Source: Vectrevirus PDP21P6. Taken from it: a DNA stretch of 44,789 bases. The DNA lies in sequence record OZ035822.1, one strand, 5' to 3'. The stretch's first letter is position 1; every line of letters starts with the position of its first letter. The notes beneath the pieces are model-generated. The model had not been told where the DNA came from. It ran no database searches and worked only from the letters and a program-made list of their open reading frames with translations. The translations under genes and the position numbers were made by a program. Positions 30-27,133 of the stretch are shown piece after piece.

Positions 30-329
30 GTGAGCGTACATAACAAACATGCAGCTACAGAAGACGAGGTTGGCATTCTGCATGGTGCTATTACCAAAAT
101 CTTCAATAAGAAAGCACAGGCAATACTGGACACTATAGAAGAAGACCCTGATGCAGCATTACATTTAGTGTCTGGTAAGGATATTGGTGCGATGTGTAAG
201 TGGGTTCTTGATAACGGCATTACCGCCACACCTGCTGCACAGCAGGAAGAGTCCAAGTTATCTAAGCGCCTCAAGGCTATCCGAGAGGCATCCAGTGGCA
301 AGATTATTCAGTTTACAAAAGAGGAGTGA
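30..329 (+). CDS. putative terminase small subunit (T7 gene 18 position)
   Basis: 99-aa ORF, GTG start with AGGAG RBS at 17-21; sits between holin and large terminase as in T7; no motif recognised, call is positional. Confidence 0.45.
   Translation: MSVHNKHAATEDEVGILHGAITKIFNKKAQAILDTIEEDPDAALHLVSGKDIGAMCKWVLDNGITATPAAQQEESKLSKRLKAIREASSGKIIQFTKEE
121..143 (+). promoter_or_regulatory. phage RNAP promoter embedded in terS coding sequence
   Basis: CAATACTGGACACTATAGAAGAA matches the genome-wide promoter core, predicted +1 G at 138. Confidence 0.55.
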
Positions 330-330
330 T

Positions 331-774
331 ATGCATAGATGGTGTGAATCTCAAGGTTATACCATCTTACCTTCTGGTGTCATCCTTTCAAAGGGTGGCA
401 CCCCTCTCAAACCATTCAAGGCGGGTAGGGGTTATTTAGCAGTTAAAATTAAAAATAAAGAAGGTAAATGGCGTAATGTCTATGTTCATCAATTAGTGGC
501 TTATAAGTATTTACCTAAAACTAATAATGAAGTAAACCACAAAGACGGCGATAAGCACAACAATGATGTTAGCAACTTGGAGTGGGTAACAAGAAGCGAG
601 AATAACTATTTAAAATGCAATGGAAATGATAGGAGTGCCTTAAATAGCTATTTAGCAAGATTAAAAGATTGCTTCTTGCAAGGTAAGGGTGTAGCAGAAA
701 CCGCTAGACTTACTGGTAAAAGTGAACCAAGAGTTTCTTCTCTCTTTAAGGAGTGGCGAAATGGCAAAGGCTAG
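331..774 (+). CDS. HNH homing endonuclease (HNH_3-like)
   Basis: ATG 331 after GAGGAG RBS; motif VNHKDGDKHNNDVSNLEWVTRSENN plus C-terminal HTH-like tail; inserted between terminase subunit genes, 3' end overlaps terL start. Confidence 0.75.
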   Translation: MHRWCESQGYTILPSGVILSKGGTPLKPFKAGRGYLAVKIKNKEGKWRNVYVHQLVAYKYLPKTNNEVNHKDGDKHNNDVSNLEWVTRSENNYLKCNGNDRSALNSYLARLKDCFLQGKGVAETARLTGKSEPRVSSLFKEWRNGKG

Positions 775-2659
775 AGAATCACAGGCAGAGGCATTAAAGC
801 GGTGGGAAAACCTTAAAGAACTACAAGACACTTTTAAATATACAGCGGAAGGTTTGCTTCTCTTTGCAGACACAGTTATTCATAACTTGATTGCAGGCAA
901 CCCTCATCTGATTCGTATGCAGGCTGATATCTTGAAGTTCCTATTCTACGGACACAAATATCGCCTCATCGAAGCGCCTCGTGGTATCGCTAAGACAACA
1001 CTATCAGCAATCTATACGGTATTCCGTATTATTCATGAACCGCATAAGCGTATCATGGTTGTGTCACAAAATGCTAAGCGAGCAGAGGAAATCGCAGGTT
1101 GGGTGGTGAAAATCTTTCGTGGCCTAGACTTCCTTGAGTTTATGCTGCCGGATATCTACGCAGGGGACCGTGCATCCGTTAAAGCATTTGAGATTCATTA
1201 CACCCTACGTGGTAGCGATAAGTCCCCCTCTGTATCCTGTTACTCAATCGAAGCAGGTATGCAGGGTGCTCGTGCTGATATTATTCTAGCGGATGACGTT
1301 GAATCGATGCAGAATGCTCGTACAGCAGCAGGCCGTGCATTGCTTGAGGAGTTGACCAAGGAATTTGAATCTATTAACCAATTTGGTGACATCATCTACC
1401 TTGGGACACCTCAGAACGTAAACTCTATCTACAATAACTTACCTGCTCGTGGTTACTCTGTTCGTATCTGGACTGCACGTTATCCTTCAGTGGAGCAGGA
1501 GCAATGCTATGGTGACTTCCTTGCACCTATGATTGTGCAGGATATGAAGGACAACCCCGCACTTCGCTCTGGTTATGGGTTGGACGGTAACAGTGGTGCA
1601 CCTTGCGCACCTGAAATGTACGATGATGAAGTGCTGATTGAGAAGGAAATCTCTCAGGGTGCGGCTAAGTTCCAGCTTCAGTTCATGCTTAACACTCGCA
1701 TGATGGATGCTGACAGATACCCACTTCGTCTAAACAATCTCATCTTCACTTCATTCGGTACTGAGGAAGTCCCTGTGATGCCTACGTGGAGCAACGACTC
1801 CATCAACATCATTGGAGATGCACCGAAGTATGGCAATAAACCTACAGACTTCATGTATCGACCTGTGGCTCGCCCCTATGAATGGGGTGCTGTTACCCGC
1901 AAGATTATGTATATCGACCCAGCGGGCGGCGGTAAGAATGGAGATGAAACGGGTGTAGCGATTGTCTTCCTGCACGGCACATTCATTTACGTGTATCAGT
2001 GCTTCGGCGTGCCAGGCGGATACCGCGAATCGTCCCTGAATCGCATTGTGCAGGCCGCAAAGCAGGCTGGTGTTAAAGAGGTATTCATTGAAAAGAACTT
2101 TGGTCATGGCGCGTTTGAGGCGGTAATTAAGCCTTACTTTGAACGAGAATGGCCTGTGACTCTGGAGGAGGATTACGCCACCGGACAGAAAGAGTTGCGT
2201 ATCATTGAGACGCTAGAGCCACTCATGGCGGCCCACAGGCTCATCTTTAACGCAGAGATGGTGAAATCGGACTTTGATTCGGTACAGAACTATCCGCTTG
2301 AGCTACGCATGTCCTACAGCCTTTTCAATCAAATGTCGAACATCACGATTGAGAAGAACAGCCTCCGGCACGATGACCGCTTAGACGCTCTGTATGGCGC
2401 TATACGGCAATTAACTTCTCAGATAGACTATGATGAGGTTACACGGATTAATCGCCTCAGAGCGCAGGAGATGCGCGATTACATCCATGCTATGAACACA
2501 CCTCACCTCCGTAGGGCGATGCTCTATGGAGATTATGGCACTGAGCGAAGAGTAACCAACACTTCCGTGGCTATGCAGCAAAGAGTGTACGGTCAGAATT
2601 ACAGGAGTAAATCGGCAAATCGAAATACACTTTCTGCAAGGATTTCAAGGACTTATTAA
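761..2659 (+). CDS. terminase large subunit (DNA maturase B)
   Basis: ATG 761 with AGGAG RBS 748-752; deviant Walker A PRGIAKTT and Walker B IILADDVE typical of T7 gp19-like terminases; 632 aa. Confidence 0.85.
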   Translation: MAKARESQAEALKRWENLKELQDTFKYTAEGLLLFADTVIHNLIAGNPHLIRMQADILKFLFYGHKYRLIEAPRGIAKTTLSAIYTVFRIIHEPHKRIMVVSQNAKRAEEIAGWVVKIFRGLDFLEFMLPDIYAGDRASVKAFEIHYTLRGSDKSPSVSCYSIEAGMQGARADIILADDVESMQNARTAAGRALLEELTKEFESINQFGDIIYLGTPQNVNSIYNNLPARGYSVRIWTARYPSVEQEQCYGDFLAPMIVQDMKDNPALRSGYGLDGNSGAPCAPEMYDDEVLIEKEISQGAAKFQLQFMLNTRMMDADRYPLRLNNLIFTSFGTEEVPVMPTWSNDSINIIGDAPKYGNKPTDFMYRPVARPYEWGAVTRKIMYIDPAGGGKNGDETGVAIVFLHGTFIYVYQCFGVPGGYRESSLNRIVQAAKQAGVKEVFIEKNFGHGAFEAVIKPYFEREWPVTLEEDYATGQKELRIIETLEPLMAAHRLIFNAEMVKSDFDSVQNYPLELRMSYSLFNQMSNITIEKNSLRHDDRLDALYGAIRQLTSQIDYDEVTRINRLRAQEMRDYIHAMNTPHLRRAMLYGDYGTERRVTNTSVAMQQRVYGQNYRSKSANRNTLSARISRTY

Positions 2660-4332: not shown

Positions 4333-4355
4333 ATTTACTGGACACTATAGAAGAG
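4333..4355 (+). promoter_or_regulatory. phage RNAP promoter
   Basis: ATTTACTGGACACTATAGAAGAG, +1 G at 4350, upstream of tailspike 1. Confidence 0.7.
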
Positions 4356-6427: not shown

Positions 6428-8224
6428 ATGCTTCAAAGATTAAGCACTGCCTTGGTGCGGTATAAAAGTAAAATGTCAGGTGCAATAGGTCGTATATTGC
6501 AAGAAAGACTAGAAGATACGTTAAATGCAAAAGACTTTGGTGCAAAATGTAATGGAGTGGATGATGATACAATCCCTCTCAACAATGCAGCAACAGCAGC
6601 ACGCCTTAAAGGAGTCAAACTCGTAATAACAGGGTCTTGCCTAACAACTGACACAGTTAACTTTAGAGAGGTACTGCTAGAGGCATCAAGTGCTACATTT
6701 ATTATTAAACACGAGGGTGTTGGTGTTATCTTGGGTGGTAATGCAAGTGTGCACAATAACCCCAAGCAAGAGTTTGGTATGACAGAAAGACTTGTTGGGT
6801 CTGCATCTCTAGACACCCCTGATGTACGTATAATGGGTGCCAAGTGCCAACACATTAGCATAGAGAAGTCTGATTACCTTCAGCTATATGCAGATTCAGA
6901 TGAATCAGTATATGAAAAGGACTACTCTATCGCGTATTCCACTTTTACCTTAAAGTATGTTAAAACAATCAACATACGCGGGATTAATCGTGGTTGGATT
7001 AATGAGAACCAGTTCTTCTTAAATAGAACACATTTTGTGACAATACAAGATGGCAATTACTCTCATAACCACAATAAATTCTTTGGTGGCACTATGGAAG
7101 AGAAAGGTGCTATAGATATACAGAGAGGTCATAATAATCACTTCTTTGGGCTTCGATTCGAAAGAGATGGCTCTAAGCCAGATAGAACACTAGACATCAA
7201 GTTTGGTTCTTATACATGGAATAATTCAATTGAAGCATCGTGGCTTAGCTCTGCTGCATATAGCAACGAACCATATAACCCAAATAATCTTGTCACTGTT
7301 ACAGATTTAGGTAGAGGTAATGCTGTACGCCATATACAAGAAGATTTAACAGATGAGATCCCTTTGCTTTCACTAAGTGGAAAGGCAGACTACATCTCTA
7401 GTACCAACCTAGGTACTGTAAGCCAACCTGTTGTTATAACTAACTTCCCTAATATATATAATATTAGACACCTAGTATCAAGCAAGTTTTCTGTTGTAAG
7501 AAATTTCTACCCTATATGGGAGTCTGGTAATTTAGAGGTAAGGAATGGAGACTTATTCACATTCTGCTCTGATGTACCTATCTTCCGTATGCGTCTATTT
7601 ATATTAGATGCGCAAGGTAATGTAATCACTGAGCAATTAGATGATGATGTATCATTCCCTGGTAGTTCTTGGAATGCACAATTAAGTATGTATACAAATA
7701 CTACCAATATTGATGTTGCTAAAATACGTGTCACTAATAGTTCTCGTATTAAATACATTCGTCTTGTCTTGATGTCTGGTGGTTCATCTCAAGATAGAGT
7801 CTTTGAATATGCAAGAGTGACTGCAAGATACTATAAGTATTCAAGCTCAACACCTCGTAAGAATATGGATGTTGCCTTAACCTCTTGCTCTGCTATTATG
7901 CCTTATAAGGGCGATGCAGAGATGCAATATATTGGTTACGGTCTGCCTGTTGTTAAGATGGAAGATACGACTAAGAAGGTTAATATAACACGTAATAGGT
8001 ATTCTGTTATTAATGTGTCTGGTTCTTCTATTAAGGTAAGGGTTTCAGGTAGTCTTATATCCGCAGACTCTAACGACTTACATCTTGTATATACAGAGGG
8101 TTCCGCTAATAAAATTATACCTATTCAGTCTTTATCGGATGATACTATTACTTTAACTTCTACTGCACCTACTACTATAGTAGCTAATAGCATGGTAGAT
8201 GTAGTTTGTACAAAGCAGGTGTGA
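6428..8224 (+). CDS. tailspike 2 (beta-helix depolymerase-like)
   Basis: ATG 6428 with AGGAGG RBS; N-terminal DFGAKCNGVDDDT pectate-lyase-like signature; 598 aa; no adaptor domain. Confidence 0.75.
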   Translation: MLQRLSTALVRYKSKMSGAIGRILQERLEDTLNAKDFGAKCNGVDDDTIPLNNAATAARLKGVKLVITGSCLTTDTVNFREVLLEASSATFIIKHEGVGVILGGNASVHNNPKQEFGMTERLVGSASLDTPDVRIMGAKCQHISIEKSDYLQLYADSDESVYEKDYSIAYSTFTLKYVKTINIRGINRGWINENQFFLNRTHFVTIQDGNYSHNHNKFFGGTMEEKGAIDIQRGHNNHFFGLRFERDGSKPDRTLDIKFGSYTWNNSIEASWLSSAAYSNEPYNPNNLVTVTDLGRGNAVRHIQEDLTDEIPLLSLSGKADYISSTNLGTVSQPVVITNFPNIYNIRHLVSSKFSVVRNFYPIWESGNLEVRNGDLFTFCSDVPIFRMRLFILDAQGNVITEQLDDDVSFPGSSWNAQLSMYTNTTNIDVAKIRVTNSSRIKYIRLVLMSGGSSQDRVFEYARVTARYYKYSSSTPRKNMDVALTSCSAIMPYKGDAEMQYIGYGLPVVKMEDTTKKVNITRNRYSVINVSGSSIKVRVSGSLISADSNDLHLVYTEGSANKIIPIQSLSDDTITLTSTAPTTIVANSMVDVVCTKQV

Positions 8225-8230
8225 GGTAAT

Positions 8231-8450: not shown

Positions 8451-8570
8451 ATGGGAGTGTTTAGCTTTATGTCAGGTACAACCAGTGATATGCCAAAGGA
8501 AGCATTCAGGAACTTCCTGATTATCGCAGGTGGAATCTTAGTGTTTTCACTAGTGCTGCTCACAAAGTAA
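8451..8570 (+). CDS. hypothetical small membrane protein
   Basis: 39-aa ORF with strong AGGAGGT RBS; C-terminal hydrophobic segment FLIIAGGILVFSLVLL. Confidence 0.3.
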   Translation: MGVFSFMSGTTSDMPKEAFRNFLIIAGGILVFSLVLLTK

Positions 8571-8984
8571 CCAAAGTCAAAATTTTGATATAGGCGTGTG
8601 TCAGCTCTCTCGCCCTCGCCCTCGCCGGGTTGTCCCCATAGGGTGGCCTGAGGGAATCCGTCGGAGACGGGTAGGGCTGATGTACTCCTTGTACTAGCTT
8701 AGTAGTACACAAGGGCAGGCCGTACTAGTTAGCTGGTACAGCCTAGTCTTTGCTCATGTACTAGCAAGGTGGAACGCCAGAGAGCGCCTAGGACGGCCTA
8801 GGGATGGCTTAGTGTTTGACAAGGTGAATGCCTTAGTGAAGCCTCTTAGTGCATTCCTGAGGCTATTCAGGGCCATTCCTGAGCGTTTGACAGGGTGGGC
8901 GTGGGTGGGCTATCTGTTCGTTTCGCTCCACTACGTTACGCTACACTCACCGCGCTCGTGTATCCTTGGTATAAACCTGATGGA

Positions 8985-9095
8985 TAGCTTAGGTTAACCT
9001 TAGTGGACTACCTTAATTAAAGCCTTAGTGCTTCACTTAGTATCAGCTTAGTAGTGTACCTTAGTTGGTCTTAGTGAATAGCCTTAGTGATTGCA
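8985..9095 (+). repeat. periodic array of CTTAGT(G) heptamer motifs
   Basis: about nine CTTAGT/CTTAGTG copies spaced 10-13 bp apart, with more copies scattered from 8393 to 10300; non-coding. Confidence 0.6.
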
Positions 9096-9316
9096 TAGCT
9101 AAAGCTATAAGATGCCAATAGGTCGCGGTCAGTAGACCGCTAAGAAAGAGAATAGTAATAAGATGCAGTAGGAGGGACACCAGAACACGGGACAACCTGG
9201 CCTCTCCTGTCTCTGTATCTATTACTTTCCTTAGTCTCACACGTTAGACAACCTAGGTTTCTCTTAGTAATTGTGACCTGTATCACATAAATAATCTATC
9301 TTAGTGAAACTTAGTG

Positions 9317-9345
9317 TTGACACAGGCAATCAACAGCTATACATT
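9317..9345 (+). promoter_or_regulatory. host sigma70-type early promoter
   Basis: TTGACA, 17-bp spacer, TACATT. Confidence 0.55.
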
Positions 9346-9493
9346 AGCAATCACTGAGGTGGACCTAGCAAGCTGCCTCAGGTTATAAGCAGGAGAATTG
9401 ATGCGTAAGCCATAGCTGGTGGATGTAGTCGCATGAAGGCTTGAGTAAGGGGCCGTTTAATACCTTCTTCCTCTGGAGACAACGCTTATAACA

Positions 9494-9665: not shown

Positions 9666-9847
9666 CACTGAATAGCCGTGAACTATCCGTTCTCTTCACC
9701 TTGTTATGCTATATGATATATAGAAATGAGTCACTCAGTGATGATGAGTTGTCTTTGTATCACCGCTTTCTTAACGATGGTTGGGTGGATACATTAAACC
9801 AGAAACGTGACTTGATGAAGGAGTTAATTAATGATTCAGTTAACTGA
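9662..9847 (+). CDS. hypothetical early protein
   Basis: 61-aa ORF, translationally coupled to the upstream ORF. Confidence 0.45.
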   Translation: MTLNSRELSVLFTLLCYMIYRNESLSDDELSLYHRFLNDGWVDTLNQKRDLMKELINDSVN

Positions 9848-9980
9848 AGACCAATTAAAGCAAATCTTAGTTGATGCGTGGTTTGCTGGTCATGAAACAT
9901 CTCAATACACACCTAACGCTTATGGCGATGCTAACAGATATGCACGTTCTGTATTAAAGGAGGTTAAAGAGGATGCATAA
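9831..9980 (+). CDS. hypothetical early protein
   Basis: 49-aa ORF, AGGAG RBS 7 nt upstream of ATG 9831. Confidence 0.35.
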   Translation: MIQLTEDQLKQILVDAWFAGHETSQYTPNAYGDANRYARSVLKEVKEDA

Positions 9981-10197
9981 ACACGAAATCTTTCTTAATT
10001 CAGGAAGTGAGGCACTCCGATTACTAGAAGATATGGAACAGGCTGGCGTAGCTGCTGACCTCACAACCTTTCTTCTGGACTATGACAGAGATTATTACCG
10101 CGTTACCTTAGTGACTGAGTATGATAACCAAGTCATCACTGAGTACTTAGGTAGTGAAGATTATGATTACGATGAAGTAATCACAACAAATCTCTAA
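9973..10197 (+). CDS. acidic early protein (DNA-mimic/anti-restriction candidate)
   Basis: 74 aa, AGGAGG RBS; strongly acidic, Asp/Glu/Tyr-rich C-terminal half; one of the first genes transcribed. Confidence 0.5.
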   Translation: MHKHEIFLNSGSEALRLLEDMEQAGVAADLTTFLLDYDRDYYRVTLVTEYDNQVITEYLGSEDYDYDEVITTNL

Positions 10198-10204
10198 ATA
10201 ACTG

Positions 10205-10233
10205 TTGACAGCCACGGCATACAAGGTTACATT
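10205..10233 (+). promoter_or_regulatory. host sigma70-type early promoter
   Basis: TTGACA, 17-bp spacer, TACATT; same architecture as 9317. Confidence 0.55.
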
Positions 10234-10264
10234 AAGCATCAAGACGGCGACGTCTTTAAACATC

Positions 10265-10279
10265 CCGCTCTTTAACAAT
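10265..10279 (+). promoter_or_regulatory. boxA-like antitermination element
   Basis: second exact copy of CCGCTCTTTAACAAT, about 30 nt downstream of the 10205 promoter and preceded by hairpin AAGACG-gcga-CGTCTT. Confidence 0.5.
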
Positions 10280-10373
10280 TTGGATAGAAGCTTCTTAGTC
10301 TGGATAGGTTAAACCTAGGAGATTCTCTTGAGTCTCCTAGAATGTAACCTAACTAACTAATGAGGACTAAATC

Positions 10374-10643
10374 ATGCAAACTATCGTTACTAAATACTTC
10401 GCTCCGACTAACACTCGCGGCTCTCGTATCAAGGTGACTAGCTGGCTCGGCTCTAAGACTTACGCTTGGGATTATGCCTTAGATGTGGAAGATAACCACA
10501 ATAAAGCATTCTACCAGTGGTTAGAGGAACAGAATAATGAGATGGCTCGTAAGTATCCTGATACAAAAGACAGTGAGCGGTTTAAGTTGGTGACTAAAGG
10601 TAATATGCCGGATGGCTCTGGCTATGCCTACATCATCAAGTGA
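10374..10643 (+). CDS. hypothetical early protein
   Basis: 89-aa ORF with GAGGA RBS. Confidence 0.55.
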   Translation: MQTIVTKYFAPTNTRGSRIKVTSWLGSKTYAWDYALDVEDNHNKAFYQWLEEQNNEMARKYPDTKDSERFKLVTKGNMPDGSGYAYIIK

Positions 10644-10651
10644 GGTGTAAC

Positions 10652-10765
10652 ATGGAAAAGCAATATAACTTTATCTTTTCAGACGGTGTAACCCTGAAGT
10701 GTTCCCTACGATTCGCACAGATTCGAGAGGAAGTGCTAGGCACTACATACAAACTATTTAGCTGA
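10652..10765 (+). CDS. hypothetical early protein
   Basis: 37-aa ORF with GAGGTG RBS. Confidence 0.3.
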   Translation: MEKQYNFIFSDGVTLKCSLRFAQIREEVLGTTYKLFS

Positions 10766-10841
10766 CACTATAAGAGAAGGCTTAACAAGGCGTTGCTACG
10801 GTAGCGCCTGATTAAACTTTCACTTACTAGGAGTTAAGACT

Positions 10842-11069
10842 ATGGATTTAGATAGCATCATTATGGCATTTGCTCTTATTGGCTTAAGCTGGTGCTCCTA
10901 TCACCTTTACCGTGAGTTCTTATTTGATAAAGCTAAACGCAAACTAAGAAAGGAAGGCGGTAATTACCTTTGTGTAAGAGGTGGGCTTGTAGAATACATT
11001 GCACCTAACGGCACGGAATGCGCCATTAGCAAAGATGCATTTATAGAAACGTGGCATTACATCAAGTAA
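10842..11069 (+). CDS. hypothetical early protein with N-terminal hydrophobic segment
   Basis: 75-aa ORF, AGGAG RBS. Confidence 0.5.
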   Translation: MDLDSIIMAFALIGLSWCSYHLYREFLFDKAKRKLRKEGGNYLCVRGGLVEYIAPNGTECAISKDAFIETWHYIK

Positions 11070-18774: not shown

Positions 18775-21271
18775 TTGGAAGAAGGAAGCAGAAGGGCGCA
18801 TCCTAGTGATGGACGCCGAAGCTAAAGGTTTGCTTGATGCTATCCGCTATGGCCATCGTGAAGATGTACACATCATTTGCTGCATGGATTTGCTTACTAC
18901 AGAGGAGTTCTTATTCTTTGACCCATATGAGATGCGTGACCCTGAAGCAAGAGAACACCTGAAGGAATGGGAAGGACATCAAGATGGAACCTTGGTTGAC
19001 GGTGTTAACTTCCTGAAGCATTGTGAAGCTATTGTGTCACAGAACTTCCTAGGGTATGACGGCCTTCTCTTTGAGAAAGCATTCCCTGATATTTGGAAAG
19101 GCTTTAACTATACCGAGAAGCGCGGCAAGGGCAGACTCCGTGCTGACCTGTGTCCTATCCGTGTTGTCGACACACTGGTAATGAGTCGCCTGTTAAACCC
19201 CGACAGACGTCTTCCTCCGCAAGCTTATGCCAAGGGCATGGGTAACGTTGCCCCTCACTCAATTGAGGCGCACGGCATTCGTATAGGCCGCTATAAGCCG
19301 GAGAACGAAGACTGGTCTAAACTAACCGACCACATGGTTCATCGTGTACGTGAGGACGTGGCAATCGGGCGTGACCTGTTCCTCTGGCTATACAACGGAG
19401 AATGGACGGAGCACAAACGCCGTGGCGTGAACAAACGCACTGGCCTAGGGATTGAGACAGCCTTCCACATGGAGTCCATTGTGGCGCTGGAGATGAGCCG
19501 TCAGGCAGAGCGTGGATTCCGTCTGGATATAGACAAGGCGTTAGCGCGATGCAAAGAACTGGACGCTAAGATTGATGAGACAGTCGCAGCGTTCCGCCCT
19601 CACATGCCTATGCGTATCAAGTCTAAACCTTTTAAACCGGAAGAAAAGAATGAAGTATGCCAACGCGCAAATGAGTATGGAGCTAGCAACAATATACCTA
19701 CTGTCCTTGACCCCTCTCTCTTTCTTCACACAGAGAGACGAGGAGATCGCAAGACAATATGGAGTGTCACTACTAAGTCTGGTGATTGGTCAGCTAGTGT
19801 CAAGAAAGACTTTCCTCACCTTAGAGGAAACCGTAATGACACGCCAAGCATCAAGTGGATTGGCGCTTACTCGCCTGTTACTTTCGAAGAGATTCCCTTG
19901 GGTAACAGGGATACAGTTAAGCAAGTGCTCTATGATTATGGATGGAAAGGTGTTGAATTTAACGATACCGAGCAAGCGCATCTGGATGAGCACGGAGTAT
20001 TACCCAAACCTTGGAGTGGAAAGATAAATGAGAAGTCCCTTACTTTATGGCAGGAAAGAGCCGCACGTGAAGGTAAAACAGTCCCTGATTGGTGCTTGGG
20101 TATCGCTGAATGGTACATTCTCGTTAGCCGTCGCGGACAGATACTCAACCGTGGTGACGTTGAAGCCTTCGATCAAAAAGGGGCGTGGCCCTCGCAGGCT
20201 GGTGTACGAAAGTGTCGTGGCCTTGTACCTGTAGCATTTAACAAGGAGCTAGGAATCAATGCGCAGCAATACTACGAAAGGTATGGATGTTGGCCTACGT
20301 CTGACAAAGATGATGGAGAGTGGCGTGTGCCAGGCAATGCTGTTACTATTGGTACTAATACGTTTCGTATGCGTCATCGTAACATTGTTAATATTCCTTC
20401 CCGTGGGTTGTATCCTCTACGTGATTTATTCATAGCTAGCAAAGGTAAAATGATACTCGGATGTGATGGCGCGGGTCTTGAGCTTCGCATCTTAGCCCAT
20501 TTCATGGGTGATCCTGAGTATATTGATATTGTCTTGAATGGCGATATTCACTCACACAACCAAGCGAAGGCTGGATTGCCCTTACGTGACACTGCGAAAA
20601 CATTTATCTACGCTTTTCTCTACGGGTCTGGCATACCAAACCTTGCCGCTGTATGTGGCATGACTGAAGCACAGATGAAAGAGTGTGTCGCTCGCTTTGA
20701 AGTAGAGCTACCTCACTTAGCTAAGCTTAAGGAGGGAGTGGAATCTGCTGCTTCACAATTTGGGTACATGCACGCTGTAGATGGGCGCTGGGGTCGTGTA
20801 CGTGTTAGTAATGGTGAGATTAAGATTCACACCTGTCTTAATGTACTCCTCCAGATGACCGGTTCTCTCACTATGAAGTACTCAAAAGTGAAAGCACTAG
20901 CTACCATGCGTAAAGAGGGCGTGGCTCTTGATGCTAATGGTAATCCTGCTATGCTTGTCGACTATCACGATGAGTGGCAGATGGAGGTGCCTGAAGACGA
21001 AGTGTTAGAAATTCGCTACTCTATTCCTTCCTCTGAATGGAAAGAAGAAGAGAAAAGGCAGTATCGTGATAGCGAAGGACGCATGTGGTCTGCTCCTAAG
21101 GTGGTTGAAGGTAATCCAAAAGAAGATGAAGAGGTCACTGTACGTCGTCGTTATCATCGTGCTGGTGAAATCCTAGCTGAGTCTATTACTTGGGCAGGTG
21201 AATATCTTAAGCTTCGTATCCGTATGGATGGCGAATATATGCTTGGATATTCATGGGCTGAGACACACTGA
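18761..21271 (+). CDS. DNA polymerase (family A, T7 gp5-like)
   Basis: ATG 18761 with GAGG RBS; motifs DGAGLELRILAHFM, RDTAKTFIYAFLYGSG, YHDEWQMEV. Confidence 0.95.
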   Translation: MKTIDWKKEAEGRILVMDAEAKGLLDAIRYGHREDVHIICCMDLLTTEEFLFFDPYEMRDPEAREHLKEWEGHQDGTLVDGVNFLKHCEAIVSQNFLGYDGLLFEKAFPDIWKGFNYTEKRGKGRLRADLCPIRVVDTLVMSRLLNPDRRLPPQAYAKGMGNVAPHSIEAHGIRIGRYKPENEDWSKLTDHMVHRVREDVAIGRDLFLWLYNGEWTEHKRRGVNKRTGLGIETAFHMESIVALEMSRQAERGFRLDIDKALARCKELDAKIDETVAAFRPHMPMRIKSKPFKPEEKNEVCQRANEYGASNNIPTVLDPSLFLHTERRGDRKTIWSVTTKSGDWSASVKKDFPHLRGNRNDTPSIKWIGAYSPVTFEEIPLGNRDTVKQVLYDYGWKGVEFNDTEQAHLDEHGVLPKPWSGKINEKSLTLWQERAAREGKTVPDWCLGIAEWYILVSRRGQILNRGDVEAFDQKGAWPSQAGVRKCRGLVPVAFNKELGINAQQYYERYGCWPTSDKDDGEWRVPGNAVTIGTNTFRMRHRNIVNIPSRGLYPLRDLFIASKGKMILGCDGAGLELRILAHFMGDPEYIDIVLNGDIHSHNQAKAGLPLRDTAKTFIYAFLYGSGIPNLAAVCGMTEAQMKECVARFEVELPHLAKLKEGVESAASQFGYMHAVDGRWGRVRVSNGEIKIHTCLNVLLQMTGSLTMKYSKVKALATMRKEGVALDANGNPAMLVDYHDEWQMEVPEDEVLEIRYSIPSSEWKEEEKRQYRDSEGRMWSAPKVVEGNPKEDEEVTVRRRYHRAGEILAESITWAGEYLKLRIRMDGEYMLGYSWAETH

Positions 21272-21281
21272 GTTATACTCA

Positions 21282-21305
21282 AGGTCACTTACGAGTGGCC
21301 TTTAT
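21282..21305 (+). terminator. terminator-like hairpin after DNAP
   Basis: AGGTCACT-tacg-AGTGGCCT (one G-U pair) followed by TTTAT. Confidence 0.4.
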
Positions 21306-21329
21306 GGATAACTTAACTAAGGAAATATT

Positions 21330-21590
21330 ATGATTAAATACACTGCTTATCAGTTAACTAAAGATCGTAAGATAGGTGTTGAGGTTAAAGCTTGGAATGA
21401 AGGACACATCACTGTAGTCATAGAGTGTCGCCAAGATAATGGTATGATATTAAGAAGCTACCGTTGCTTCACCAAATTACGCTGCAAAGATTTAACTGAA
21501 GAATTATTCTTACGTTGTATTGTTGAATCTATTAAGCTTATTAGACCTTACGCTAAGAAAGTTGTAGGCAATGTCACAGTAGTACATTGA
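21330..21590 (+). CDS. hypothetical protein
   Basis: 86-aa ORF. Confidence 0.5.
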   Translation: MIKYTAYQLTKDRKIGVEVKAWNEGHITVVIECRQDNGMILRSYRCFTKLRCKDLTEELFLRCIVESIKLIRPYAKKVVGNVTVVH

Positions 21591-25685: not shown

Positions 25686-26126
25686 GTGGCTTGCATAGAT
25701 CACGGACATTATAAATGTCTGAATAAACTAGGATATTACCGCTCATGGCACAAGCCTAGTAAGAAGTTACAACTGCTTCATAGAGTGGTCTATGCTGAGC
25801 ATCATGGGTTATCTCTTGAAGCAATAGAAGGTCTAGTGGTCAGACATACTTGTGACAATGCAAGATGTATTAATCCACAGCATCTTATAATTGGTACGCA
25901 GCAGGATAACATACAGGATATGGTAAAAAGAAACCGTCATGCACGTATGATAGGAGATACTAATCCTAGGGCTGTACTTACGTGGGATGTAGTGCGAGAT
26001 ATTCGTGCCAATTATATTAAGGGTGCAAAATCTGGCCCATATTCACGTACAGTCTTGGCAGAGAAGTATGGTGTCTCTGCTGCCACTATTAGTGATATTA
26101 TAGCTGGAAGGAGTTGGAAAGAATAA
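25686..26126 (+). CDS. HNH homing endonuclease (second copy, different subfamily)
   Basis: GTG 25686 with AGGAGG RBS; motif HRVVYAEHHG...VRHTCDNARCINPQHLIIGTQQDN plus C-terminal HTH-like segment. Confidence 0.75.
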   Translation: MACIDHGHYKCLNKLGYYRSWHKPSKKLQLLHRVVYAEHHGLSLEAIEGLVVRHTCDNARCINPQHLIIGTQQDNIQDMVKRNRHARMIGDTNPRAVLTWDVVRDIRANYIKGAKSGPYSRTVLAEKYGVSAATISDIIAGRSWKE

Positions 26127-27133
26127 TGGGTAAGATTCGAAACTTGTTTACTAATAAGGAGGTAGAAGAAGCAGTTGAAAGTGCAAAGCGGGACAACGGC
26201 ACTATCAACTATCGCCTAATGGCGTCTATTCTCTCAGATAACACGCATGGAACTACAGTTACAAGACAACTTGCAAAGTATTGGGCCAAACAGTTTGAAA
26301 AGCGGAAGAAGAATGGCGAGGCTTATGAAACCTTGGCTATTGCGAACCGCGCTATCAAAGAAGAACGTAAGCTCAGGACTCCTGACCGCTACGAGGATTT
26401 GGCTATTGTACCATTGCCTGACTCGCCTCATCGAAGTGTACTGGTAATACCTGACACCCATGCACCTTATGAGCATCCAGATACATTAGAGTTTCTGGCA
26501 GCGGTGGCAGCACGTTACCGTCCAGACACTGTAGTTCATCTTGGTGATGAGGCGGACAAGCACGCACTTTCATTCCATACGTCAGATCCTAATCTGGATT
26601 CTGCTGGTATGGAGTTAGAGAAGGCTCGTATCTTCATGCGTAAATTACATAAGATGTTCCCTGTAATGCGCATCTGCCACTCTAATCATGGCTCCTTACA
26701 TTTCCGTAAGGCCAGTGCTCATGGCATCCCTGTGCAATACTTGCGCACCTACCGTGAAGTCTTCTTCCCGCAGGGAGGTGGCGACCAGTGGGACTGGCAG
26801 CATACGCATGTCCTTGAGTTACCTAATGGAGAACAGGTGGCATTCAAGCATCAACCTGCTGGTTCTGTCCTAGCAGATGCAGCACACGAGCGTATGAACC
26901 TTGTGTGTGGTCATTTGCATGGTAAGATGTCTGTTGAGTATGCACGTAATACACATGAACAGTATTGGGCTGTGCAAGGTGGCTGTCTGATTGATGAGTC
27001 ATCTCGTGCATTTGCCTATGGTCGTGAGTCTAAATACAAGCCAGCATTAGGTTGTGTGGTCATTCTGGAAGGTGTGCCTCATATTGTCCCGATGCAAACC
27101 AATAGCAACAATCGCTGGATTGGTAAGATTTAG
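26126..27133 (+). CDS. calcineurin-like metallophosphoesterase
   Basis: motifs VIPDTHAPY, GDEADKH, SNHG, GHLHG; ATG overlaps upstream stop. Confidence 0.75.
   Translation: MGKIRNLFTNKEVEEAVESAKRDNGTINYRLMASILSDNTHGTTVTRQLAKYWAKQFEKRKKNGEAYETLAIANRAIKEERKLRTPDRYEDLAIVPLPDSPHRSVLVIPDTHAPYEHPDTLEFLAAVAARYRPDTVVHLGDEADKHALSFHTSDPNLDSAGMELEKARIFMRKLHKMFPVMRICHSNHGSLHFRKASAHGIPVQYLRTYREVFFPQGGGDQWDWQHTHVLELPNGEQVAFKHQPAGSVLADAAHERMNLVCGHLHGKMSVEYARNTHEQYWAVQGGCLIDESSRAFAYGRESKYKPALGCVVILEGVPHIVPMQTNSNNRWIGKI

Follow-up and report, generated by a model that had tools for sequence, protein, structure and literature searches.

A putative homing endonuclease gene between the terminase genes of a Vectrevirus genome, linked to a recoded terL start

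An HNH endonuclease gene lodged between the small and large terminase genes of a phage might be a mobile element that homes into this junction, or it might serve in packaging alongside its neighbors. We examined this question for the gene at positions 331-774 of the complete genome OZ035822.1, from a K1E/K1-5-like coliphage of the genus Vectrevirus (Autographiviridae, Molineuxvirinae); its entire 44,789 nt are the window analyzed here. The genome is re-oriented, such that position 1 lies about 30 nt 5′ of terS, inside the holin gene. Its first 3 kb match 113 phage records, with Mt1B1_P10 at the top (98.8%) and several assemblies named 'Vectrevirus' among the matches. As argued below, the gene is best explained as a free-standing gene for a homing endonuclease of the I-HmuI-like HNH_3 type, with a putative target that is probably located within the first ~90 bp of terL in insert-free phages, and we put the probability of this explanation at roughly 0.8.

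The terS-terL junction and its carriers

A sequence-only reading of this genome had described a 147-aa ORF of the HNH_3 type located between terS and terL and overlapping the terL start. This description is borne out in every detail by matches to the Pfam families HNH_3, DNA_Packaging_2 and Terminase-T7_RNaseH-like. The features of the locus and of the encoded protein are as follows.

30..329, + strand: terS, small terminase, 99 aa (Pfam DNA_Packaging_2, E 3.6e-16)
321-326, + strand: Shine-Dalgarno sequence GAGGAG in the 3′ end of terS, which serves terL in insert-free relatives and the HNH ORF here
330..761, + strand: insert segment of 432 bp, absent in insert-free relatives (length of 2671 versus 2239 bp, and junction alignment; boundaries ambiguous by 1-2 nt)
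331..774, + strand: free-standing HNH endonuclease gene, 147 aa plus TAG, ATG start (Pfam HNH_3, PF13392, E 2.6e-11)
748..753, + strand: AAGGAG, putative replacement ribosome-binding site for terL, read from the sequence 7 nt 5′ of the terL ATG
761..2659, + strand: terL, large terminase, 632 aa (Pfam Terminase-T7_RNaseH-like, E 1.5e-35), with the start ATG at 761 taken from the annotated relatives VEc3 and Mt1B1_P10
761..848, + strand: recoded 5′ patch of terL (fixed differences, bimodal identity, codon counts, and the same patch in a Klebsiella phage lineage)
Protein residues 1-50: N-terminal beta-sheet region
Protein residues 50-92: HNH motif
Protein residues 101-143: three-helix, HTH-like C-terminus

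The gene order is therefore holin-terS-HNH-terL, and in VEc3 the portal gene is about 15 kb away. The HNH stop codon (TAG, 772-774) falls inside terL, giving an overlap of 14 nt between the two genes. To define the empty site we used a global iterative alignment of 17 junction sequences, 9 from carriers and 8 from non-carriers. In the insert-free junction the TGA of terS overlaps the ATG of terL as TGATG, an arrangement that is also evident from the annotated junctions of ULINTec6 and K1E and is found in all of ULINTec6, K1E, ACG-C91, LL11, vB_EcoP_K, ULINTec4, 6949 and PDP21P3. No group I intron is detected in the genome by an Rfam scan at the gathering threshold, and the same scan does detect RF00028 in the terL genes of K1E and PhiNW-E1. 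Hence, the HNH gene is free-standing, with its own Shine-Dalgarno sequence and ATG, between two complete genes.

Signals for separate transcription of the gene were also sought. A consensus scan of the genome found no SP6-type promoter near either of its two HNH genes (the second is described below), and sigma-70-like and terminator-like signals for the gene at 331-774 match only at chance level. Elsewhere on the + strand the SP6-type consensus has eight matches (at 4333, 10756, 17319, 18049, 21590, 23505, 27128 and 32266), each with 2-3 mismatches where 0.01 would be expected by chance, and most of these contain the core GACACTATAGAAG.

The genome also differs from its relatives at some distance from this locus. 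Three stretches (6445-8230, 9836-11065 and 21006-21588) are without a blastn alignment of at least 200 nt to VEc3, and largely the same gaps are seen with ULINTec6 and AAPEc6. The first of these falls within the tail-spike region and likely represents replacement of a host-range module.

Among 77 related phage records, 17 have the HNH gene and 60 lack it; with duplicate RefSeq/GenBank entries counted once, the 17 represent about 14-15 distinct genomes. The sequence-only reading had proposed exactly this comparison of the terS-terL junction in relatives and had set the presence of an orthologue in all of them against a homing insert; instead, the gene is missing from most records, which display a clean TGATG empty site. 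Within the 17 Vectrevirus carriers, the DNA of the gene is at least 99.5% identical in 14, with AAPEc6 (96.5%) and PhiNW-E1 (91.2%) being more distant. Outside these records, HNH gene DNA was not found in the phage collection, and the next protein relatives there share less than 60% identity and reside in unrelated phages. A protein scan of IMG/VR likewise returned only AAPEc6 and distant relatives.

The similarity among the carriers' copies extends slightly beyond the gene, into terL. Over the 510 nt that comprise the HNH gene together with terL nt 1-80, VEc3, DIJ06P1, EC120, KMB47 and 101101UKE1 have 0-2 differences from OZ035822.1, whereas over the 1459 nt of terL at 1201-2659 the same phages have 126-134. 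Most carriers thus share a cassette, composed of the gene plus about 80 nt of terL, that is 99.5-100% identical, while the remaining terL is only ~91% identical. Indeed, the 3′ part of terL in OZ035822.1 is closer to that of the non-carrier ULINTec6 (94.7%) than to that of the carrier VEc3 (90.8%), and neighbor-joining trees of this part distribute the carriers over at least three clades, each beside non-carriers. Such near-identical copies in backbones that are ~9% apart point to recent spread rather than to old vertical descent, and the comparison indicates that the cassette has probably moved horizontally among diverged backbones.

Two further sequences deserve mention, neither of which adds to the count of carriers. 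A weak DNA match in Klebsiella phage cp4 was considered as a gene at the same site and rejected, as the match is to a paralogue that lies in another gene context, in the early region, and the cp4 junction has no insert. In addition, a contig from Logan accession ERR4564195 (L026, 4271-4760) holds a copy of the cassette with two 1-nt deletions in A-runs, which fuse terS to the N-terminus of HNH (P0004) and leave a 92-aa remainder; otherwise a single aligned position differs from OZ035822.1. This apparent fusion more likely reflects homopolymer assembly errors than a decaying copy, and it was left out of the evidence.

The encoded HNH protein and the question of packaging

The match to HNH_3 spans residues 50-92 of the 147-aa protein and scores 43.4 bits against a cut-off of 24.8, and PHROG HNH families are matched as well (phrog_59 at E 1.3e-29). 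Of the solved structures, the homing nickase I-HmuI (1U3E) alone is significantly similar in sequence (E 5.4e-6, residues 11-92). An AlphaFold (AF2) model built from 25 homologues has a mean pLDDT of 92.8, and when this model is compared with the PDB by Foldseek, again only I-HmuI is significant (E 9.5e-7, probability 1.0, 30% identity). Residues H53, N69, H70, D72, N77, N78, N82 and N91 are invariant across the 25 homologues, so the predicted catalytic motif (H70, N78, N82 and N91) is intact. N69 aligns with the metal-binding Asp of I-HmuI, and an Asn is invariant at this position among the homologues. Three helices are predicted for residues 101-143 with pLDDT values of 84-96, and these have weak matches to HTH domains, both by sequence (ECF sigma region 4, E 0.5) and by fold (HetR, ArdK and recombinase HTHs, E ~1-3). 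Judging from the model, these C-terminal helices are the putative DNA-binding part of the enzyme.

The gene also appears to be maintained. Its ORF is intact in all nine carriers examined, and pN/pS is 0.13 in comparison with AAPEc6 and 0.18 in comparison with PhiNW-E1. The GC content of the gene is 37.7%, compared with 44.9% for the genome.

The sequence-only reading had offered, as an alternative to homing, an HNH protein that is associated with packaging and that would work together with terminase in cutting concatemers, as is the case for HK97 gp74 and for the cos-adjacent HNH genes of siphophages. The sole observation in favor of such a role is the position of the gene between terS and terL, and a family of HNH proteins encoded adjoining terminase genes has indeed been described, for which a zinc site composed of CxxC plus CxxC/CxxH is characteristic (PMC3592412). 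However, the protein studied here has only three cysteines (C5, C96 and C114), and no CxxC or CxxH zinc motif is present in its 147 residues. Its Pfam match is to HNH_3 and not to HNH (PF01844), and its only solved relative is a homing enzyme. The gene order also differs, since members of the packaging family are arranged as HNH-terS-terL-portal at cos.

Moreover, the ends of the genome appear to be located elsewhere. The genomes of K1E-like phages terminate in short direct repeats (PMC5582158). In the linear VEc3 record, the two ends correspond to 8557-9346 of our window (8557-8912 for the right end and 8609-9346 for the left), which would place the ends of the physical genome, together with a terminal repeat of about 300 bp, at ~8609-8912, present once in the re-oriented assembly and about 8 kb from the HNH gene. 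Finally, a packaging function is difficult to reconcile with the absence of the gene from 60 of 77 close relatives, all of which were isolated as viable phages, and an orthologue is likewise missing from all eight close Klebsiella relatives in the phage collection that span the junction. The packaging alternative therefore fails on every feature that can be checked, namely conservation, zinc motif, HNH type and distance from the genome ends, and we consider it very improbable.

The recoded start of terL and other endonuclease insertions

In the 17-genome alignment, 22 differences in 2.6 kb are fixed between carriers and non-carriers. One is at position 326 and the other 21 are at 766-837, with none elsewhere in the aligned 2.6 kb. 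All 21 differences of the patch are located downstream of the insertion, within the first 26 codons of terL, and one consequence of the patch is the stop codon of the HNH gene itself, which is created by a change from GCA AGA to GCT AGA. A search with nt 1-120 of terL gives a strictly bimodal outcome, wherein 17 records match at 95% or more and 60 records match at 60-80%. The first set is made up of exactly the 17 HNH carriers, and none of the 60 records in the second set carries the gene.

The divergence of the patch is both abrupt and mostly silent. Between carriers and non-carriers it is 65-67% identical, compared with 91-95% for the remaining terL, and among the first 30 terL codons 14-15 differ synonymously and 5-6 non-synonymously. 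Over the first 90 nt, non-carriers belonging to different genera agree at 67-70 positions, whereas carriers and non-carriers within one genus agree at only 60-62. The other flank of the insert behaves differently. In the carrier PhiNW-E1, the 3′ end of terS is of the non-carrier type to within ~6 nt of the insert, and therefore the locked segment is one-sided, extending 77-90 nt downstream of the insert. We infer that the patch at 761-848 is a cleavage-resistant version of the endonuclease target. Exact-pattern scans for the recoded patch gave no match in the metagenome collection and returned only AAPEc6 from IMG/VR; a resistant allele without the gene was not seen, although sampling is thin outside the phage collection.

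A similar arrangement exists in a second group of phages. Two contigs, L024 (45.4 kb) and L025, encode a 144-aa homologue with 59% amino acid identity (P0002) at the junction of terS and terL, and both are related to Klebsiella Molineuxvirinae such as IME184, K1-ULIP33 and 'Ulipvirus' Koku. The two contigs are 99.8% identical in the HNH gene, 100% identical in the first 80 nt of terL and ~95% identical in the remaining terL. In comparison with non-carriers, identity is 66-72% over terL nt 1-80 and 94-96% over the rest, with the switch at about terL +90. The recoding in this lineage is even more strongly silent in character, with 20-22 synonymous versus 2-3 non-synonymous codons. AAGAGG is the counterpart of AAGGAG before terL, and insert-free Klebsiella junctions have the same precise TGATG overlap as in Vectrevirus. 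As judged from these alignments, the whole pattern of a sporadic gene with a recoded patch is replicated around a diverged orthologue in a second genus.

That phages of two genera have related genes at this site could also be taken to mean that the HNH gene was ancestral at this junction and was deleted in most lineages. Deletion would be expected to leave the recoded terL patch behind, and yet the patch is found in none of the 60 insert-free records. The empty junction is the identical, precise TGATG in both genera, and the closer agreement of non-carrier alleles across genera than of carrier and non-carrier alleles within a genus also speaks against ancestry with loss. The near-identity of carrier copies in backbones that are ~9% apart is a further difficulty, and we regard ancestral presence followed by loss as highly unlikely.

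The genome contains one other HNH gene, and further sites are occupied in its relatives.

25686..26126, + strand: second HNH_3 gene, 146 aa, GTG start (HNH_3 E 5.1e-9, plus zf-His_Me_endon), between the endonuclease VII and phosphoesterase genes

This second gene is present in just 9 of 94 related records and is absent in VEc3, ULINTec6 and AAPEc6, which agrees with the earlier suggestion that the genome has acquired endonuclease genes more than once. The same reading called the two genes unrelated. This holds for the pairwise comparison, where the two proteins have no significant similarity (BLASTP E 0.13), but not at the family level, since both belong to HNH_3 and to phrog_59. The phosphoesterase gene 3′ of the second HNH gene is only 48-67% identical to that of ULINTec6 over its first ~240 nt (about 26126-26365) and then abruptly becomes 100% identical. 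The second HNH gene is an independent insertion with the same pattern, gene plus rewritten downstream flank, as that at the terS/terL site.

These observations bear on the possibility that the gene at 331-774 is simply a passenger, or a gene for competition, that ordinary recombination has moved, and that it is either inactive in homing or kept for some other benefit, such as harming co-infecting rivals or host DNA. Mosaicism is general in these genomes, with sharp identity switches across the region and other blocks of 99-100% identity nearby, and purifying selection would fit any useful function. Furthermore, one report describes an intron endonuclease that acts in phage-phage competition (PMC11620839). 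However, ordinary recombination does not account for the contrast between a left flank in which exchange is free up to ~6 nt from the insert and a right flank that is locked for 77-90 nt, nor for a locked patch that is saturated with synonymous changes. It also leaves unexplained the same asymmetric patch around a 59%-identical orthologue in another genus and the comparable diverged downstream flank of the HNH gene at 25686-26126. We therefore consider this explanation unlikely, though less so than ancestral loss or a packaging function. A role in competition is in any case compatible with homing and is not an alternative to it.

Related phages carry additional insertions near the terminase genes. 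In K1E (L003, 2954-3739) and PhiNW-E1 (L011, 1826-2652), terL is split by a group I intron (RF00028, 61-64 bits). The intron is followed by a 177-aa ORF, gp40.5, with weak matches to GIY-YIG and to the NUMOD-like domain of I-HmuI. The gp40.5 ORF is 99% identical between K1E and PhiNW-E1 and 96% identical in the Klebsiella-phage contig L025 (2918-3451), whose backbone is only ~71-77% identical to OZ035822.1. This distribution suggests that the gp40.5 element may have moved between genera; the element is absent from OZ035822.1.

An HNH_3 gene between holin and terS is annotated as gp43 in ACG-C91 (L013, 2073-2459) and is present but unannotated in EC120 (L010, 2083-2454) and ULINTec4 (L016, 2083-2454), at 74-76% amino acid identity. 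The encoded protein matches the N-terminal portion of the terS/terL HNH protein at ~41% identity, and EC120 has both genes; the holin/terS gene is absent in OZ035822.1. Across these phages there are consequently three endonuclease sites in the packaging module: holin/terS, terS/terL, and the intron in terL. Outside this module, the annotation of the non-carrier ULINTec6 (L005, 6404-9639) shows a primase/helicase gene interrupted by an 'HNH homing endonuclease # Phage intron', with another putative HNH gene after it. Vectrevirus genomes thus differ in their sets of endonuclease insertions.

A homing model and its relation to known systems

Homing, the first of the two possibilities raised by the sequence-only reading, is favored by the combined evidence that carriers are few (17 of 77) and polyphyletic, that the gene is more conserved than its flanks, and that it is perfectly linked to a recoded 5′ end of terL. 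The mechanism that we propose is as follows. Because there is no phage-type promoter near the gene and no intron, the HNH protein would be made from transcripts of the late operon, with translation starting from the ribosome-binding site once used by terL. In a mixed infection, the enzyme would nick or cut the DNA of an insert-free relative within the first ~90 bp of terL, and the break would be repaired by copying the carrier genome. The HNH gene and the adjoining 5′ segment of terL would in this way be copied into the recipient, amounting to intronless homing in which flanking markers are co-converted. Owing to its recoded terL start, the carrier itself would be spared from self-cleavage. 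The cost to the phage would be small, as the insert appears to limit it by bringing a new ribosome-binding site for terL and by ending inside the recoded patch.

Several elements of this model, including nuclease activity, the choice between a nick and a double-strand break, and the immunity of the recoded allele, are deduced from sequence comparisons, and the target position is read only from the location of the linked differences. The cut may fall at the far end of the locked patch (terL +77 to +90), since each round of homing has to co-convert the whole stretch from the cut to the gene. Alternatively, the patch may in part be hitch-hiked donor DNA rather than selected immunity, because its ~77-90 nt exceed the footprint of a single I-HmuI-type enzyme, which in the I-HmuI structure is reportedly ~25 bp.

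A bolder possibility, which we offer tentatively, is that the cassette functions as a 'weapon plus immunity' unit directed against a packaging motor gene. During co-infection it would cut the terL of a rival near the patch edge at +77 to +90, and would thereby both spread itself and retard or prevent the rival's supply of terminase, a form of interference competition, with its target in the 5′ end of terL having been kept across at least two genera. Under this speculative extension of homing, the +77 to +90 edge might represent the minimal segment that has to be co-converted.

If the homing explanation is correct, then an HNH gene beside the terminase genes of SP6/K1E-like phages should not be annotated as a packaging factor. 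The model also makes a concrete prediction for an I-HmuI-like enzyme, which is that its target resides within ~90 bp of the terL start, and natural sensitive and resistant alleles are available from two genera. More broadly, the packaging module would be a hot spot of selfish nucleases, and this would affect mixed infections and the use of phage cocktails through localized marker exclusion around terS and terL. The general picture of homing endonuclease biology is unchanged by these findings.

The GenBank records of KMB47, EC120, AAPEc6 and VEc3 already label the gene as 'HNH homing endonuclease' or 'HNH endonuclease', while our literature searches for this Vectrevirus element or its recoded patch found no analysis of either. 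As far as we found, neither the recoded terL start that accompanies the gene nor its reappearance in Klebsiella phages has been described before, and both are as the homing model predicts.

Among characterized enzymes, the closest are I-HmuI and I-HmuII, the nicking HNH homing endonucleases of the Bacillus phages SPO1 and SP82. Like I-HmuI, the 331-774 protein has an N-terminal beta region, then the HNH motif, and then a C-terminal helical part that binds DNA in I-HmuI and putatively does so here. These enzymes cut both intron-plus and intron-less alleles and nick the downstream exon; what they rely on is a difference in the flanking sequence and not a site that the insertion interrupts (PMC3428280). 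Their action downstream matches the recoded patch of the 331-774 cassette, which is likewise found downstream only. There are also clear differences, as I-HmuI is encoded by a group I intron that interrupts a DNA polymerase gene and the gene described here is free-standing. I-HmuI is 174 aa long rather than 147 aa, its NUMOD-like Pfam match is missing in the 331-774 protein, and it has an Asp before the catalytic His where our protein has an Asn.

The Seg and Mob enzymes of T-even phages provide the precedent for mobility without an intron. One of them, MobE, is an HNH enzyme with a distinct C-terminal region. Free-standing T-even endonucleases carry out intronless homing with co-conversion of flanks and cause localized marker exclusion (PMC2988022). 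Similar to the gene at 331-774, those for MobE, SegF and SegG lie between essential genes, are sporadic, and spread together with flanking sequence (PMC2988022, PMC2790892). They belong to another phage family, however, and their cuts are often hundreds of base pairs away (PMC2988022), in contrast to the target that we place within ~90 bp.

HK97 gp74 and the HNHE of the phage gamma type share with the 331-774 protein membership in the HNH superfamily and a location adjacent to terminase genes. They differ in having the zinc-binding CxxC/CxxH motif, in their Pfam family, and in belonging to cos phages, whereas the genome studied here is probably that of a terminal-repeat phage. A further parallel is given by Barth, Dunham & Seed (2023), who report that homing endonuclease genes are often located beside or within essential phage genes and have flanks of high identity (PMC10448857). 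That work concerns ICP1 and a broad survey, in contrast to the locus examined here, but the clustering of three such sites in the packaging module of these phages follows the same tendency.
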